64,000 nt of DNA from an uncultured Gammaproteobacteria bacterium (GTDB taxonomy: Bacteria; Patescibacteriota; Patescibacteriia; UBA9934): positions 1,913-65,912 of the forward strand of contig CAYFME010000008.1 in the NCBI GenBank assembly GCA_964344145.1, in the 5' to 3' direction. Shown in pieces: positions 3,327-18,820 of this stretch (positions within the stretch are counted from its first letter, which is position 1; every line of letters begins with the position of its first letter). A program made the translations under genes and the position numbers. The notes below the pieces were generated by a model, which was not told the origin of the DNA, made no database searches, and saw only the letters and a list, made by a program, of their open reading frames with translations.

Positions 3327-5318
3327 CTAGAAGAGGCCCTGGAAGAACGGGACGAGGACTCCCATGACGATGGCGGCGGCCACGCCCACGAGACCTTCGC
3401 CGGCGATGCCGCCAGCGCCGATGGCTCCGGAGTAGTTCTCCATCCACGCCGGGCGCTTGACCTTGATGGTCAGGTAGACCATGGAGCCCAGGAACATGGA
3501 GAAGGAGTACATGTAGGGCACGATCATGGCCACGCCAAGGCCAATGGCCGAGGGCATCCACGCGCGCACCTTGGGCGACACGCTCTTCTCCACGATGGTG
3601 ATCAGCACGCCCAGGACGATGCCGACGATGAGAGCTGGCACGGCCATGGGGGGCAGGGCGCTCACGCCCTTGGCCATCATGGTGGCGAGTCCGGCCCAGG
3701 TGATGGCTGCCGGGGCGGGCCACATCTCGGAACCGATGGGGTGCGCCTGGATCAGGACCCAGAAGATCGCCGCGCAGAAGGGAGCGCCGATGAGTACGCC
3801 CATGAGCTGTGCGTAGACCTGCCGCTTGGGCGTGGCGCCCAGCAGCCAGCCGGTCTTCAGGTCCTGCATCATGTCGGCCGCCTCGGAGGCGCCACCAGCG
3901 GCCACGCCACCGGTGAGCAGGTTGGCGCTGGTGATGGAACCGACGCCCGCGGAGCTGCCGGTCTGCAGGGCGCCGAAGGCGATCTGCGTGACCGAGCCCA
4001 TGGTACCCACGGGGTTGATGTCCGTCTCGCCCGTCGCGCGCACGGCGATGACCGCGAGCATGAAGGACAGGGCGATAGCCAGGATGCCGAAGTACCACGG
4101 CACGCCGAAGCGGATCTGGAGCATGCCCATCACGCCGATGGAGGCGACGATGAGGCCGCCGACCCACTGCCAGGTGGGGACTTCCAGGTGGGCGATGGGC
4201 GACACGCCGCCACTGCGGCGGAACATGCTGCGGATGGCCTTGAGGATGATCTTCCACTGGTAGGCGGTCGCGGTGAGGCCCGCGGCGATCATCATGCCGA
4301 TGGCGGGCCACATGAGCCACTTGACCATGATGGAGTAGTAGCTCTGCGCCTGCACGTCCGCGAAGTACTTGCAGTTGTCCGCGAAGAAGGCGGCCTGCTG
4401 CTCAGTCGGCTCCGCGATGGCGAAGATGGCCTGGCAGTCGGCCACGACGGCGTCGGGGGTCATGCTCGTGGCGATGGTCACGTCGATACCCTGACTCACG
4501 AGCCAGGGCGTCAGGACGACCCAGGCGATGATGCCGGCCACGCCCAGCGAAGCGCCGATGCGCGGGCCGATCAGGAAGCCGGCGCCGAACATCATCGGCG
4601 AGACCGCGGCACCGACCGTGAGGTTGGCTAGCGGGATACCACCGACCTTCCAGCTCGCCGGGGCCATGACGTAGCTCGGGATGAACGCGGGCCAGCCCTG
4701 CTGGAACCAGGTGATCACGCCGGAGACGAGACCGGTGATGCCCAGAGCCTTGGCCTTGTTCATGGCCTGCGCACCCTTGGCGTGCATCGCCGTGATGGTC
4801 TCGGCGCAGGCGGTTCCGGTGGGGAAGCGCAGGCGGTCGATGACCAGGATCTGGCGGCGCAGCGGGATGGCGAAGAAGACGCCCAGGAAGCTCGTGAAGA
4901 ACACCCACAGCAGCACGTCCATGAAGGTCGGCGCCTGGCGGATGATGCCGTCGGCCGCGAGCAGGAAGAGCGCCGGGATGACGTTCACGATGTTGCCCAG
5001 CGACCCGGCCGCGCTCGCGAAGGTCTGCGTCGCGTTGTTCTCGAGCACCGAGTAGCTGCGCCCGAGGATCCGCATGATGGCGAAGCCCAGGATGACGGCG
5101 ATGAGCGAGCCTCCCTCACCCCAGCCGGTCTTCAGACCCATGTAGATGTTGAAGGCGATCATCAGCGCGCCCAGGCCGATCGAGACCAGGATGACCTGGA
5201 TCGTCAGCTCGGGGAGCTTGTCGCCCTTGTAGGTGTGGGTCAGCCAGTGACGTTCTGCCCGCTCGACTTCTTCTGCCGAGCGCGGTTGGACGTCAGCGGT
5301 AGCGCTGTCGTTCATCAT
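3327..5318 (-). CDS. OPT-family oligopeptide transporter (high-GC gene)
   Basis: About 660-aa polytopic membrane protein with OPT-superfamily-like TM pattern; 65% GC with GC3 bias; start MMNDS at 5318 chosen from GGGGG RBS-like context (alternative TTG at 5399). Confidence 0.7.
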   Translation of the reverse strand: MMNDSATADVQPRSAEEVERAERHWLTHTYKGDKLPELTIQVILVSIGLGALMIAFNIYMGLKTGWGEGGSLIAVILGFAIMRILGRSYSVLENNATQTFASAAGSLGNIVNVIPALFLLAADGIIRQAPTFMDVLLWVFFTSFLGVFFAIPLRRQILVIDRLRFPTGTACAETITAMHAKGAQAMNKAKALGITGLVSGVITWFQQGWPAFIPSYVMAPASWKVGGIPLANLTVGAAVSPMMFGAGFLIGPRIGASLGVAGIIAWVVLTPWLVSQGIDVTIATSMTPDAVVADCQAIFAIAEPTEQQAAFFADNCKYFADVQAQSYYSIMVKWLMWPAIGMMIAAGLTATAYQWKIILKAIRSMFRRSGGVSPIAHLEVPTWQWVGGLIVASIGVMGMLQIRFGVPWYFGILAIALSFMLAVIAVRATGETDINPVGTMGSVTQIAFGALQTGSSAGVGSITSANLLTGGVAAGGASEAADMMQDLKTGWLLGATPKRQVYAQLMGVLIGAPFCAAIFWVLIQAHPIGSEMWPAPAAITWAGLATMMAKGVSALPPMAVPALIVGIVLGVLITIVEKSVSPKVRAWMPSAIGLGVAMIVPYMYSFSMFLGSMVYLTIKVKRPAWMENYSGAIGAGGIAGEGLVGVAAAIVMGVLVPFFQGLF

Positions 5319-14603: not shown

Positions 14604-15227
14604 TTGTTTTGTATGCAAAGAATGATCCCTTTGTTTTTGATGGCGCTTTTGGTTGTTGGAGCTGGCTGCAGCGAACCTCAGGCGAATGACGATACGCTCG
14701 ATGCGTTGACTGAGCTTGGGACGGACATCGAAGAGATCGCCGATGAGGAGGATGAAGAGGAAGAGGGGGCGGAAGACGATGAGGAGGCGGATGAGGCCGA
14801 AGATGATGATCAAGTAGCAGAATCATTGCCAGTCGATGATGATGCTGACGACACAGACGTTGGCGAGGAGCCCGAGCTTGAGTCTGAGGAAGATGACGAT
14901 GCGGCCGAGCAAGAAGCGCAGGATCTTCCAGAAGAAGACGATGACGAAGAGAAGGACGAGTCGCTTTATGTCTCCATGGAGTCGGGAAATTTTTTCTTCA
15001 GTCCAAGCTCCATCGCCGCAGAGCCTGGTCAGACCGTTGTTATCACCATTGAGCAGAACGCTGGAACGCACACGCTTGTGATCGATGAGATTGGCTACAA
15101 GTCCGGCGTGAGTATTGGCGATGTTCTTACATTCACCGCACCAACCGATCCAGGATCATATGCCTACTACTGCGACGTTGGATCACATCGTGCACTTGGC
15201 ATGGAAGGGACGTTGATTGTGCAATAG
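14604..15227 (+). CDS. Cupredoxin (plastocyanin/azurin-like blue copper) lipoprotein with ~100-aa poly-acidic linker
   Basis: Lipobox LLVVGAGC; C-terminal type-1 copper ligand pattern YYCDVGSHRALGMEG (C..H....M); the linker is a D/E-rich run. Confidence 0.7.
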   Translation: MFCMQRMIPLFLMALLVVGAGCSEPQANDDTLDALTELGTDIEEIADEEDEEEEGAEDDEEADEAEDDDQVAESLPVDDDADDTDVGEEPELESEEDDDAAEQEAQDLPEEDDDEEKDESLYVSMESGNFFFSPSSIAAEPGQTVVITIEQNAGTHTLVIDEIGYKSGVSIGDVLTFTAPTDPGSYAYYCDVGSHRALGMEGTLIVQ

Positions 15228-15272
15228 CGTTTCAAAAAACGGGCTACAGGGTCCGTTTTTGAATTCTGTAGG

Positions 15273-15301
15273 TTGACAAAACCGCCAATTTATGCTATAT
15301 T
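15273..15301 (+). promoter_or_regulatory. Sigma70-like promoter (TTGACA-N17-TATATT) upstream of the DGR target gene
   Basis: Exact TTGACA at 15273-78, a 17-nt spacer and TATATT at 15296-301; follows a cupredoxin-gene terminator hairpin (15234-15260). Confidence 0.6.
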
Positions 15302-15446
15302 CACTGCCTGTTCCTTGTGATTTTTGGCTTTCTTGTTGTCTATTTTTCTAGGTAGACGGCAAGAAGGCCGGAAACAGATAGGTCTTCCCCTTTGCCGTGT
15401 TGGCGAGGGGTACGGCTTTCCCGAAAAGGGGAGGCAAGGATACAAC

Positions 15447-15923
15447 ATGGACACGCTGCTTTCCGCGGCCCACCTGCGTCGTGAGCTGGGCGAGGAGCTC
15501 TTCAAGGCTCTGGTGAGCTCTGACAACACCGGCAAGGTGCGCACGTTCGCCCAGAGCCTCGTCAACGCCGCCAGCGACCGGCTCCCCACCGAGCTGACCC
15601 TCGGCGATCGCACCTACGAGATCCTCGGCTTCCTCAAGCCTGGCGAGACCTCGGTCAAGGGTGACGTCATGGTCCAGCGCGCCAAGGAGATGAACGCCCA
15701 CCTCGGCAAGGAAGACGGCCAGTGGTTCCTGGACCACCAGGACGACATCCCTGAGAGTCTGCGCGGCAAGGTCGCCTTCGTCTTCACCGACTGGCGTTAC
15801 CCCGACGCCTCGCGCGACGTCTACTACGTCTTCTGGCACGACGCTTCCCGTCGCTGGTTCAGGCACTGGCACCACCTCCCCTCCCTGTGGCTTGACCTCG
15901 ACCGTCTTGTGCGTCGCAAGTAG
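15447..15923 (+). CDS. DGR variable (target) protein, 158 aa, variable repeat at extreme C-terminus
   Basis: ATG 15447 preceded by AAGGGGAGG RBS; 62% GC; last 43 codons form the VR matching the downstream TR; no signal peptide seen. Confidence 0.8.
   Translation: MDTLLSAAHLRRELGEELFKALVSSDNTGKVRTFAQSLVNAASDRLPTELTLGDRTYEILGFLKPGETSVKGDVMVQRAKEMNAHLGKEDGQWFLDHQDDIPESLRGKVAFVFTDWRYPDASRDVYYVFWHDASRRWFRHWHHLPSLWLDLDRLVRRK
15792..15920 (+). repeat. DGR variable repeat (VR), 129 bp
   Basis: Aligns gap-free to 16267-16395 with 15 mismatches; every mismatch position is an A in the other (TR) copy. Confidence 0.85.
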
Positions 15924-15984
15924 GCTCTTGGGTCCTGGGGTTCTTGGCACCTGTCTTGGCCCTCGCTCCCTTGGTCCTCTCCGT

Positions 15985-16029
15985 GGCCCCGCATCTTGCT
16001 TGCAAGGTGCGGGGCTTCGACGTTTTTTT
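15985..16029 (+). terminator. GC-rich hairpin plus T7 run downstream of the target gene (terminator and/or DGR VR-flanking stem-loop)
   Basis: GGCCCCGCA-tcttgcttgcaagg-TGCGGGGC followed by cttcgacgTTTTTTT. Confidence 0.6.
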
Positions 16030-16266
16030 ATGCTAAATTTACTTCGGACGGTAAACTTGCAAGGCTCGCGGCCATGGCTTCGAGCGGTTGAAATCCGGAC
16101 GCTGTGACACGCCGGAATATATCAGGCTACGGCTCGGTATAGAGTGCTGTCGCAGCCCCCCAAATGAATATACTTGGTGCGATGTGCTGGTGAGATCACT
16201 TCTCCAAATACGATTCAGCCCAGAGAAGATCGATGGGTGGTGGTGTAGATGGCGCATGGCATACAT

Positions 16267-16395
16267 TGGCGTAACCCCGACGCCTCGCGCGACGTCTACT
16301 ACGTCTACTGGCACGACGATTCCCGTCGCTGGATCAGGAACTGGAACAACCTCCACAACCAGTGGAATGACAACGACCGTCTTGTGCGTCGCAAG
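16267..16395 (+). repeat. DGR template repeat (TR), 129 bp
   Basis: Intergenic copy of the VR. It holds about 30 adenines, 15 of which differ in the VR. In the VR frame it encodes WRNPDASRDVYYVYWHDDSRRWIRNWNNLHNQWNDNDRLVRRK, with the adenines concentrated in AAC/AAT codons. The in-frame TAA where VR has TAC confirms it is non-coding. Confidence 0.85.
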
Positions 16396-16406
16396 TCTGT
16401 TCATTG

Positions 16407-16436
16407 CAAACACTCCCGCTGATTCGGGAGTGTTTG
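16407..16436. other. Perfect 12-bp stem-loop immediately 3' of the TR and abutting the avd stop codon
   Basis: CAAACACTCCCG-ctgatt-CGGGAGTGTTTG. Confidence 0.6.
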
Positions 16437-16437
16437 G

Positions 16438-16758
16438 TTATCTCGCGTGCTTCATCCAGCCACCGAGCATTTTTCCTATCTCCGCTAGTTGTTGAGAGAG
16501 TCGTGCGAATGCCTTGTGATCTACGAGCTTCATCTCCCAGGCGAGCTGCAGGAAGAATTTGAGCGCATCAAATTTCGCGGCTGCCTTCTCAAGAATTGAT
16601 CGCTTATCATGTTTGCTCGAGAATGAAGCCAGTAGGATGAGCTCAATCGTTTCCGTAAATAGGGAATCTATTTTTACTCCAATGGTGTAACGGGAAAGCC
16701 GTGGTAGGTTGGACAACGTTCCATGCCAACATTTATATGCATCGCTGAGTTTATGCAA
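16438..16758 (-). CDS. avd: DGR accessory variability determinant (Avd; four-helix-bundle / 23S-rRNA-IVS protein family)
   Basis: 106 aa; AYKCWHG...FDALKFFLQLAWEMKL...LAEIGKMLGGWM resembles Bordetella bAvd (ATKCYDQ...LAMLRFWLRFLAG...AEVGRILGSWI); TTG start at 16758; on the opposite strand to the TR and RT. Confidence 0.75.
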   Translation of the reverse strand: MHKLSDAYKCWHGTLSNLPRLSRYTIGVKIDSLFTETIELILLASFSSKHDKRSILEKAAAKFDALKFFLQLAWEMKLVDHKAFARLSQQLAEIGKMLGGWMKHAR

Positions 16759-16850
16759 AATCGTAACATCACCTCGGAGATTATCGGGGGGGGGGTCGCA
16801 AAAGAGGTCTGTTTTCGCATACGCTCGAGGAGATTGTTTCGTTTGATAAT

Positions 16851-17795
16851 GTGTTACTTGCCTGGTCGGAGTTTGTCAAAGGCAAACGATCGAAGCAGGA
16901 TGTGCAGGTCTTTTCCAGAGCGTTGATCGACAATATCGATGTGTTGCATTGGGAGTTAGCATCAGGATTGTATCGTCATGGCGGGTATCAACATTTTGTT
17001 ATTCATGATCCCAAGCGTCGGGATATTCATAAGGCCTCTGTCCGCGATCGTTTAGTGCATCACTGTGTACATAGAATGCTCTATCCCTATTTTGATCGTC
17101 GATTTATCGCAGATAGTTTTTCGTGCCGAACAGACAAAGGCACGCACCGAGCAATGGATCGCTTCCGTTCCATGGCCAACAAGGTGAGTCACAATCATAC
17201 GAGGACGTGCTGGGTACTGAAGATGGATATTCGTAAGTTTTTCGCGAGCATCAACCAAAACACATTGCTCCGTCAGCTTGACGGTTTTATTGTTGATACA
17301 CGGATTGTTTATTTGTTGAGAGAGATTATTTTCAGCTTTCATACAGTGCCCGGCTTTGGGCTCCCTCTTGGCAATCTCACATCACAGCTTTTCGTAAATG
17401 TGTACATGAACGAGTTCGATCAGTTCGTGAAACATGCGTTGGGTATCAAGTTCTATATTCGTTATGCGGATGACTTTGTAATCCTTTCGCGCGATCGTGA
17501 GCACCTGAATGAATTGATTCCCGAGATCGATGCGTTTTTGTTCGAAAGATTGCTCTTGCAACTTCATCCGGATAAGACGTTCATCAAGACGCTTGCATCC
17601 GGAGTGGATTTTTTGGGATGGGTTCATTTCCCTGATCATCGAGTCTTACGCCGCTCAAGCCGTCATCGCATGTTTCGCAAGTTGCGGGGGGATCCACGAG
17701 AGGAGGTTTATCAGTCGTATAGGGGTCTGTTAGCCCATGGTAATGGGGGAAAACTTCAGAGAAAGTTACTGGATGATTATTGGATGTTATCGTGA
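16851..17795 (+). CDS. DGR-type reverse transcriptase; annotated from first in-frame GTG but conserved N-terminus continues upstream to 16767
   Basis: RT motifs 1-7 include CRTDKGTHRAM, the DGR-diagnostic LPLGNLTSQLFVNVY (SQ in place of QG) and IRYADDFVILS (YADD box). It closely parallels Bordetella phage bRT. 42% GC. Confidence 0.9.
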   Translation: MLLAWSEFVKGKRSKQDVQVFSRALIDNIDVLHWELASGLYRHGGYQHFVIHDPKRRDIHKASVRDRLVHHCVHRMLYPYFDRRFIADSFSCRTDKGTHRAMDRFRSMANKVSHNHTRTCWVLKMDIRKFFASINQNTLLRQLDGFIVDTRIVYLLREIIFSFHTVPGFGLPLGNLTSQLFVNVYMNEFDQFVKHALGIKFYIRYADDFVILSRDREHLNELIPEIDAFLFERLLLQLHPDKTFIKTLASGVDFLGWVHFPDHRVLRRSSRHRMFRKLRGDPREEVYQSYRGLLAHGNGGKLQRKLLDDYWMLS

Positions 17796-17845
17796 TACAG
17801 CGTCGATATTGACGGTTTTTGATTTTCGGTTTAAGCTTCTCCGCT

Positions 17846-18820
17846 ATGTCCCAGATCCTCTATAGACAAATTCGCCAGCAAATCGATCAGGCTGATCGCA
17901 TTTTGCTGCTGACGGATGAGCGTATCGACGGTGATACGCTTGGTTCGACGTTGGGGATGTATCACGTGTTGTTGGCGATGGGAAAGGACGTGACGGTCTA
18001 CTCGCCAAAGCCGCTGTCGGAGATGTTTGCCTTTTTGCCAGGATCTCAGGATATCGTACGCGATCCCACAATCTTTGCTGACGATACGATTGATTTGGTG
18101 ATGATCTTCGACTGCTCTGACGGCGAGTATATCCAGGAGCGCGATAAGATTCCTGCCATGAAGCGCCGCGTGCCGCTCGTCTCTTTTGATCATCACGCTA
18201 CCAACCCACGCTATGGCATGGTGAACCTCATTGAAGAGGATGCGGCCTCCACCGCTGATGTGGTGTGGCGATTTATTAAAGATCAGAAGCTACCGATGAA
18301 CAAGAACGCCGCGCAGTGCATCTTGACTGGTATTTGTCACGACACCGTTGCTTTTAGTACGACGAACACAACGGCCGCCTGCTTGAGTGCGGCGCACGAG
18401 TTGTCTGCGCATGGTGCACGGCTGCAGGAGATCGTGTATCACACGATGATGAATAAGTCCGTTGAGACGTTGAAGCTGTGGGGGTTGGCGTTTGAGCGTC
18501 TTCACTATAGTAAGGAGTTTGATGCGACCTGTACGGTGATTACGCTTGCGGATATTGAACGGTTGAATGTGAAGGAATCCGAAACGCGCAGTTTGATGGA
18601 TTTTCTAAATGTGATGCTCGATGCCGAGGATGTCATTCTGATTCTCAAAGAACGACCCGATGGATCAGTGAAAGGGTCATTGCGATCGCATACCCGTGAT
18701 GTATCTGAGCTTGCCAAGCAATACGGAGGAGGGGGGCACAAAAACGCGGCTGGCTTTAAAATCGAAAACGCCCACCTTCAGGAAAAGGATGGGTCGTGGA
18801 TCGTTGTTGAAGACAAGTGA
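17846..18820 (+). CDS. nrnA: Bifunctional oligoribonuclease / pAp phosphatase NrnA (DHH-DHHA1 family)
   Basis: DHH N-domain (FDHH at 18181 region) and C-terminal GGGGHKNAAGF DHHA1 motif. Confidence 0.85.
   Translation: MSQILYRQIRQQIDQADRILLLTDERIDGDTLGSTLGMYHVLLAMGKDVTVYSPKPLSEMFAFLPGSQDIVRDPTIFADDTIDLVMIFDCSDGEYIQERDKIPAMKRRVPLVSFDHHATNPRYGMVNLIEEDAASTADVVWRFIKDQKLPMNKNAAQCILTGICHDTVAFSTTNTTAACLSAAHELSAHGARLQEIVYHTMMNKSVETLKLWGLAFERLHYSKEFDATCTVITLADIERLNVKESETRSLMDFLNVMLDAEDVILILKERPDGSVKGSLRSHTRDVSELAKQYGGGGHKNAAGFKIENAHLQEKDGSWIVVEDK

Follow-up and report, generated by a model that had tools for sequence, protein, structure and literature searches.

Diversity-generating retroelements (DGRs) have been described in phages and in cellular genomes. 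The element of Bordetella phage BPP-1 comprises mtd, avd, a template repeat (TR), and brt. Among cellular elements, a clade restricted to candidate phyla radiation (CPR) bacteria was defined as clade 2, and neither transmembrane nor recognizable domains were reported in its targets (Roux et al. 2021, PMC8144416). A 'CPR set' with unclassified types of variable repeat (VR), for which no fold was assignable from sequence, was also reported (Wu et al. 2018, PMC5758913). Here, we analyzed a 64,000-nt stretch of contig CAYFME010000008.1 (positions 1,913 to 65,912, forward strand; assembly GCA_964344145.1), hereafter called the window. A pair of repeats in the window, a VR at 15792–15921 and a TR at 16267–16396 (both + strand), together with its surroundings, almost certainly constitutes a chromosomal DGR of a Patescibacteria (CPR) lineage. 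A first-pass annotation, made from the sequence alone, had proposed a DGR pair of variable and template repeats, a reading that is borne out by a bAvd-like gene, a DGR-type reverse transcriptase (RT), the location of the VR at the C-terminus of an open reading frame (ORF), and the location of the TR in a structured non-coding RNA.

The VR forms the last 43 codons of the target gene. Pairwise alignment of 15792–15920 with 16267–16395 reproduced the gap-free match of 129 nt annotated previously, with an offset of 475, and the identity ran one base further, to a T at 15921 and 16396, giving repeats of 130 nt. As annotated, the mismatches fell solely on TR adenines (15 of 15), and none was found at a C, G, or T of the TR; the VR base was C at eight of these positions and T at seven. 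The TR contained 30 adenines and the VR 15, in agreement with the earlier statement that half of roughly 30 template adenines were substituted. The chance of finding all 15 mismatches on adenines was 3e-10 by the binomial and 1e-11 by the hypergeometric calculation. A repeat search of the whole window yielded no second VR, and the VR and TR were the only long repeat of their kind.

The codon design was equally distinctive when read in the frame of the target gene. Twelve codons differed between the TR and the VR, and the earlier list of these codons was correct. The TR adenines occupied the first codon position 10 times, the second 20 times, and the third not at all, with seven AAC codons and one AAT codon, as had been recognized from the richness of the TR in such codons. 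The last codon, AAG, was the sole TR codon able to mutate to a stop codon. The number of protein variants reachable from the TR adenines was computed to be about 4e17.

These adenine-only mismatches and this codon design, both observed directly, bear on a rival origin of the pair, by ordinary duplication of part of a gene or by gene conversion, with mismatches that came to lie on adenines by chance or compositional drift. The first-pass annotation had argued against a coding duplicate from a TAA in the TR. In the frame of the target gene, the codon at this place reads AAC, the TAA being out of frame, and the TR forms part of an open frame (ORF 16249–16422); thus, the argument from a stop codon fails, and a coding remnant is not barred by stop codons. 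The conclusion itself was retained for other reasons. Besides the hypergeometric probability given above, a structured non-coding RNA, conserved and with a predicted promoter of its own, encloses the TR, avd and a DGR-type RT gene adjoin the pair, and the same adenine pattern was found in 37 loci. We give a duplication or gene-conversion origin almost no credence.

The 3′ ends of the two repeats were identical over a stretch resembling an initiation of mutagenic homing (IMH) sequence (15899–15921, + strand), in which three adenines were unsubstituted. Its identity in both repeats had been noted before, with a length of 21 nt, which we corrected to 23 nt. Immediately after this stretch, the VR and the TR diverged completely. 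In the relatives, the adenines of a shared CGCAAG within the corresponding stretch were likewise unsubstituted. In one related locus (L024), the TR and the VR differed within this stretch at a non-A base, which is what a distinction between IMH and IMH* would predict.

About 110 related loci from genomes and from groundwater and other metagenomes were compared. Thirty-two genome loci encoding the target protein family came from Magasanikbacteria, Uhrbacteria, Falkowbacteria, Buchananbacteria, Paceibacter, and others; their labels were Patescibacteria lineages or were uninformative or doubtful. A metagenome scan with an RT alignment returned at least 470 relatives, many of them from groundwater, and 80 loci (L036–L115) were fetched. 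Among the 32 genome loci, only L011, L017, and L024 had the layout of the window, in which the target gene and the TR are followed by avd on the − strand and the RT gene on the + strand. Setting aside a single non-A mismatch in L011 and another in L024, all differences between their VRs and TRs fell on TR adenines. Over the whole set, a VR could be paired with a TR in 37 loci, 35 of which had the VR upstream on the same strand; 663 mismatches fell on TR adenines versus 64 on other bases, the latter mostly at the alignment ends. Wherever avd was found in the related loci, it was on the strand opposite to the RT gene and just upstream of it. Since the layout with adenine-targeted mismatches recurs in 37 loci from metagenome-assembled genomes of Patescibacteria and groundwater metagenomes, the element is assigned to the known class of CPR DGRs.

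The spectrum of substitutions in the window differed from that of the lineage. None of the 15 substitutions in the window VR was A-to-G, versus 54% of the 663 across the lineage, and the residues encoded after substitution were Y, F, A, H, P, S, and L. The missing A-to-G changes point to selection or an unusual error spectrum.

The other genome loci were lone target genes in unrelated settings, and most genomic copies of the target family (among L001, L002, L004–L010, L012–L016, and L018–L035) had no RT gene, avd, or TR within 6 kb. In L001, for example, the target gene was flanked by the gene for the small subunit of a NiFe hydrogenase on one side and by that for the large subunit on the other. 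The VRs of these lone target genes differed from the TRs of other genomes mainly at TR adenines; in L007, differences from a foreign TR were found at 19 of 32 A positions versus 3 of 90 non-A positions (p = 4e-11). This pattern indicates that the lone genes are, or until recently were, rewritten in trans by a similar TR, as trans targets or as recently orphaned ones.

The target gene (15447–15923, + strand) encodes a protein of 158 amino acid residues whose C-terminus is the VR product. The protein had no signal peptide and matched no family of Pfam or NCBIfam, a sequence search of the PDB with the target profile gave nothing useful, and the exact protein was not on record in other contigs. 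Its 86 homologues, of about 153–160 residues, were all unannotated, and those with an organism name were from Patescibacteria. In their alignment, the N-terminal and central parts were conserved and the C-terminus was hypervariable; the hypervariable part was framed by invariant W, R, and L residues and ended in RVLRRK. An AlphaFold2 model of the target consisted of three N-terminal helices followed by a compact domain with a distant likeness to C-type lectins, and the VR would accordingly be borne on a domain resembling the C-type lectin fold, as far as the model indicates. In nearly every genome, the GC content of the target gene was 10–30 points above that of its flanks, with GC at third codon positions of up to 0.93; the values for the target gene and its surroundings were 0.65 and 0.52 in the window and 0.62 and 0.33 in L007. 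Because the gene is depleted in both A and T, this bias is not simply avoidance of adenine.

The two enzyme genes of the element start divergently downstream of the TR. The avd gene (16438–16758, − strand), oriented against the TR and the RT gene, has a TTG start codon and encodes 106 amino acid residues that matched the Pfam family bAvd (PF22296) with 52.9 bits versus a cutoff of 40. The RT gene (16797–17795, + strand), about 400 nt downstream of the TR, encodes a protein with a match to RVT_1 (5e-24), LGNLTSQ at residues 191–197, and YADD at 223; its conserved N-terminal residues begin right after a run of G. The protein was 35–39% identical to the products of reverse-transcriptase genes of phage genomes, those of Bordetella phages among them. 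Its best match in the PDB was 8ub7, a 328-residue 'Reverse transcriptase' that is presumably the Bordetella phage bRT (E = 2e-41). Matches were also recorded to the NCBIfam models of group II intron RT/maturase (132 bits versus a cutoff of 300), Drt3a, and retron RT, which would be the trace left by an RT of a group II intron, a retron, or a defense system (Drt/Abi) unrelated to the repeats. All of them were far under their cutoffs, and group II intron RTs in the PDB matched at only about 1e-17. Moreover, the protein lacked an extension of the maturase or endonuclease type, Rfam detected neither a group II intron nor a retron RNA, and the DGR-type LGNLTSQ motif and the linkage to avd also speak for a DGR enzyme; an origin from one of these other RT classes is therefore extremely improbable. 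The flanking genes were housekeeping genes, encoding SMC, a cupredoxin, a DHH/DHHA1 phosphoesterase, and ClpP, which indicates that the element is chromosomal.

The TR was embedded in a non-coding RNA conserved across the lineage. About 230 nt upstream of the TR were conserved, and a TGnTAnAAT block at the 5′ edge of the alignment corresponded in the window to an extended −10 element, TGCTAAATT (16031–16039, + strand), which presumably acts as the promoter of the TR-containing RNA. Directly 5′ of the TR, a multi-helix domain (16045–16262, + strand) was delineated in an alignment of 38 loci and contained an invariant GAUACUUGGUGC block at 16169–16180. RNAalifold predicted 46 pairs from these loci, and 37 of them showed compensatory changes. 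In the alignment, 92.3% of the cells were paired versus 40–49% when the partners were slid, and 442 cells were changed on both sides versus 132 ± 13 in shuffled alignments, with none of 500 shuffles reaching the observed value. An Rfam search of 15200–17900 with E values up to 1 gave no match except two chance matches to miRNAs over the hairpin of the target leader.

The 3′ tail of the RNA (16398–16435, + strand) consisted of a duplex strand and an 11-bp stem-loop. UGUUCAUU at 16398–16405 pairs with AAUGAAUA at 16163–16170, upstream of the TR, so that a duplex spans the TR. In the lineage, the corresponding strands are a conserved AAAUGAAGA, adjoining the GAUACUUGGUGC block on its 5′ side, and UCUUCAUUU, located 2–5 nt after the TR, and the duplex was maintained by compensatory changes in many loci. 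The stem-loop is formed by 16408–16418 with 16425–16435, and a U-run comes next in most loci. For the ribonucleoprotein of the Bordetella phage element, a 'cPRT Stop' duplex and an Avd-binding stem-loop were described, and such RNA elements were predicted in CPR DGRs as well (Handa et al., bioRxiv 10.1101/2023.10.23.563531). The duplex and the stem-loop of the window correspond to these two elements, and the mechanism is thus most likely the known one.

On this model, the TR would be transcribed from its own promoter as a discrete non-coding RNA consisting of the structured domain of about 230 nt, the TR of 130 nt, and a short tail, which would base-pair with sequence upstream of the TR and terminate in the stem-loop. 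The RT, together with pentameric Avd, would reverse-transcribe the TR and misincorporate opposite adenines, and the resulting cDNA would replace the VR at the 3′ end of the neighboring 158-residue gene. In this way, up to about 20 residues could be redrawn on the small C-type-lectin-like domain, while adenine-free codons, which encode the scaffold of W, R, and L, would stay fixed. The component genes and RNA elements, and the fact that they are conserved in the lineage and show covariation, are direct observations; the cis-priming of cDNA synthesis, the role of Avd, and homing are inferred by analogy with the Bordetella phage model. The total lack of non-A differences between the VR and the TR over 130 nt argues for recent homing.

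Several observations weigh against this reading. The product of avd reached 71 bits with the NCBIfam model DivGenRetAVD, under the cutoff of 80, and had no sequence match in the PDB. Unlike in the Bordetella phage element, no GC-rich hairpin was found directly after the IMH-like stretch; the closest was that of the terminator 66 nt downstream, with a repeat array between them. Such hairpins occur in just 34% of DGRs (Wu et al. 2018, PMC5758913). The RT frame contained no ATG, GTG, or TTG from the stop codon TAA at 16764–16766 to a GTG at 16851, and a start at this GTG would remove 18 conserved N-terminal residues. Finally, the VR was identical, at the consensus level, in three contigs with an identical RT (L116–L118), which were independent assemblies of the same population from the runs ERR2281800 and ERR2281801, and no heterogeneity was visible.

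The last two observations raise the question of whether the DGR is switched off or was recently inactivated in this genome, with a run of 10 G (16786–16795, + strand) between the divergent avd and RT starts leaving the RT without a usable start codon and the VR frozen. Frame analysis indicated that an ATG at 16753 would join the RT frame if the run were G11 or G8. L116–L118 shared the G10 run with the window in addition to the VR, and in the subgroup of related loci in which the RT ORF runs through the tract, it was in frame in 8 loci and out of frame in 10. Against inactivation, the lack of non-A differences between the repeats argues for recent activity, non-canonical initiation (at CTG or ATT) or a small share of cells with G11 would suffice for activity, and minority variants are invisible in consensus assemblies. 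We regard a silent or inactivated element as possible and the less probable state. L116 differed from the window at four positions (15662, 15675, 15693, and 15708), all upstream of the VR, and the contigs L116–L118 ended inside the cassette, at 15535 and 15671 in the target gene and at 16277 in the 5′ end of the TR. These differences and contig ends suggest a second allele or a paralogue of the target gene in the sample.

The G10 run was the sole run of seven or more G or C in the window, and a simple-sequence repeat (SSR) at this position was a feature of the lineage. The tract was conserved at the same position as G8–12 in 63 of 73 related loci, with G8 in 8, G9 in 22, G10 in 25, G11 in 6, and G12 in 2 loci, and G6 was found in one further locus. 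The remaining loci had (GT)7–11 or (GA)6–13 (five loci), an interrupted G-run (one locus), or nothing (three loci). In 45 of the 63 loci, the ATG of the RT gene was located 7–43 nt after the tract, and avd usually had a TTG start codon about 10 nt from the tract on the other strand; therefore, the tract is usually non-coding. Two of five near-identical pairs of loci differed at the tract. L075 and L076, 99.8% identical, had G10 and G11, respectively, and L036 and L037, 98% identical, had G9 and GGTG8; in both comparisons, sequencing error in G-runs is possible. In the three other near-identical pairs, as between L116–L118 and the window, the tract length was equal.

Contingency loci, for example the (TA)n switch of hifA/hifB in Haemophilus influenzae (PMC2651432), are characterized by polymorphic repeat length and by the exchange of one repeat class for another at a given position. 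The tract resembles that switch in being an SSR between two divergently transcribed genes, in varying between mononucleotide and dinucleotide repeats among related loci, and, unless sequencing error is the cause, in varying in length between some near-identical sequences. It differs in being located mostly about 10–25 nt from both start codons; thus, it may be part of the 5′ untranslated regions and not of a −35/−10 spacer. It also differs in that the genes under its putative control encode a mutagenesis machine, not surface structures. Judged by its sequence features, the tract between avd and the RT gene has the look of an on/off switch, which we put forward as a hypothesis; it may instead reflect miscounted bases in runs of G or take part in the initiation of transcription.

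Three other accounts of the tract were rejected. A function as a Shine-Dalgarno (SD) sequence does not fit the position of the RT ATG, usually 14–25 nt past the tract, and the presence of a separate AAGGA after the tract. A general coding role, as GGG or PPP, and a need for poly-G specifically are both at variance with the RT ATG following the tract in most loci and with the (GT)n or (GA)n repeats in several. A full-text search of a literature collection for DGRs together with poly-G, homopolymer, or phase variation found no paper linking DGRs to such tracts.

Between the stop codon of the target gene and its terminator, the window contained an array of CTTGG-like repeats (15922–15986, + strand). 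Arrays of this type consisted of 4–7 CTTGG-, CTTTG-, CTCAG-, or CTTAA-like repeats, mostly 7–8 nt apart, and followed every VR of the lineage whatever the target family (37 loci), and none followed the TR. The motifs numbered 4.6 per 75 nt versus 0.84 in random windows of the same loci, an enrichment of about five-fold (p = 4e-27) that was computed on the same data from which the motif was defined. Per locus, dinucleotide shuffles gave a weak signal, with 7 of 37 loci at p ≤ 0.05, and only the clade-wide enrichment was strong. The array may mark recipient sites. As a tentative model, which we hold to be rather less than an even chance, the G-rich SSR would be a slipped-strand contingency switch of the hypermutation machinery, with the G10 of the window as an 'off' allele, and, separately, the CTTGG-like array would be the recipient-site marker of the lineage, replacing the IMH-proximal hairpin of the phage elements.

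The signals around the target transcript were also conserved. A promoter with TTGACA, a 17-nt spacer, TG, and TATATT was predicted at 15273–15301 (+ strand), with 11 of 12 consensus matches, and TTGACAAAA..TATAnT was also found upstream of homologous target genes; by its sequence, it is probably a strong promoter of the sigma-70 type. The 5′ leader of the mRNA (15302–15446, + strand; about 145 nt) was predicted from a 16-locus alignment to be structured, with a long outer helix showing covariation, a hairpin of invariant sequence (CUCUUUGCC/GGCGAGGAG) resembling an anti-SD/SD pair, and a second hairpin predicted to sequester the SD sequence. In this alignment, 88.5% of the cells were paired versus 50–60% in slid controls, and 19 pairs were changed on both sides versus 10.6 in shuffled alignments, with none of 500 shuffles reaching the observed value. 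The leader may be a translational control element. At the other end, a terminator-like hairpin (CCCCGCA...TGCGGGG) followed by seven T (15987–16029, + strand) was read from the sequence as the end of the target transcript, and the relatives had equivalent GC hairpins with a T-run. In or beside the target leader of some relatives, inverted-repeat inserts of the form CATTCCCGC...GCGGGAATG were observed (L002 at about 4878–4905, L009 in the leader, and L001 at about 4650–4720); these look like miniature mobile repeats.

The DGR as such is one more example of a class already catalogued in CPR bacteria, and its identification is correct and unsurprising. The value of the analysis is in the comparison of about 110 loci, which yields features of the lineage rather than of this one pair. 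It defines, with covariation, the non-coding RNA in a lineage of DGRs that is distant from the Bordetella phage model, and in which the TR-flanking duplex and the stem-loop persist despite a different gene order and strand. If the tract controls expression, chance switching between on and off would extend to targeted hypermutation itself, which would bear on how the cost of a mutator is limited and on the static look of many DGR targets in metagenomes. The post-VR array is a testable candidate for recognition of the recipient VR, including that of lone target genes elsewhere. Roux et al. 2021, Wu et al. 2018, and Handa et al. make no mention of the SSR tract, the array after the VR, the RNA domain 5′ of the TR, or the target leader, and the tract, the array, and the leader are apparently unreported so far.

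Compared with the variable proteins of solved structure, Mtd (1yu0) and TvpA (2y3c), the target is much smaller (158 residues in all) and has no detectable sequence similarity to them, and its family has a W..W..W..W scaffold and the conserved RVLRRK C-terminus. From the BPP-1 element, the window element differs in being located in the chromosome of a CPR bacterium and not in a phage, and in the placement of avd, which separates the TR from the RT gene and is encoded on the other strand. A structured RNA of about 230 nt precedes the TR, and the TR RNA is seemingly a separate transcript with its own promoter. In place of the GC hairpin right after the IMH, the CTTGG-like array is found; the target lacks a signal peptide and is not a tail fiber; and an SSR is located between avd and the RT gene. 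The two elements are alike in a TR/VR pair differing at adenines alone, a VR at the C-terminus of a protein with a C-type lectin fold (here modeled), Avd and an RT with an IGxxxSQ-type motif, an identical IMH-like 3′ end, and an RNA duplex across the TR with a stem-loop just after it. With the DGRs reported from CPR bacteria (PMC8144416, PMC5758913), the window element shares a cellular location, a host in the Patescibacteria, a small target without a transmembrane or other recognized domain, and a VR whose fold is not assignable from sequence. Judged from the hosts, the target features, the layout, and the published descriptions, nothing contradicts its membership in this class.

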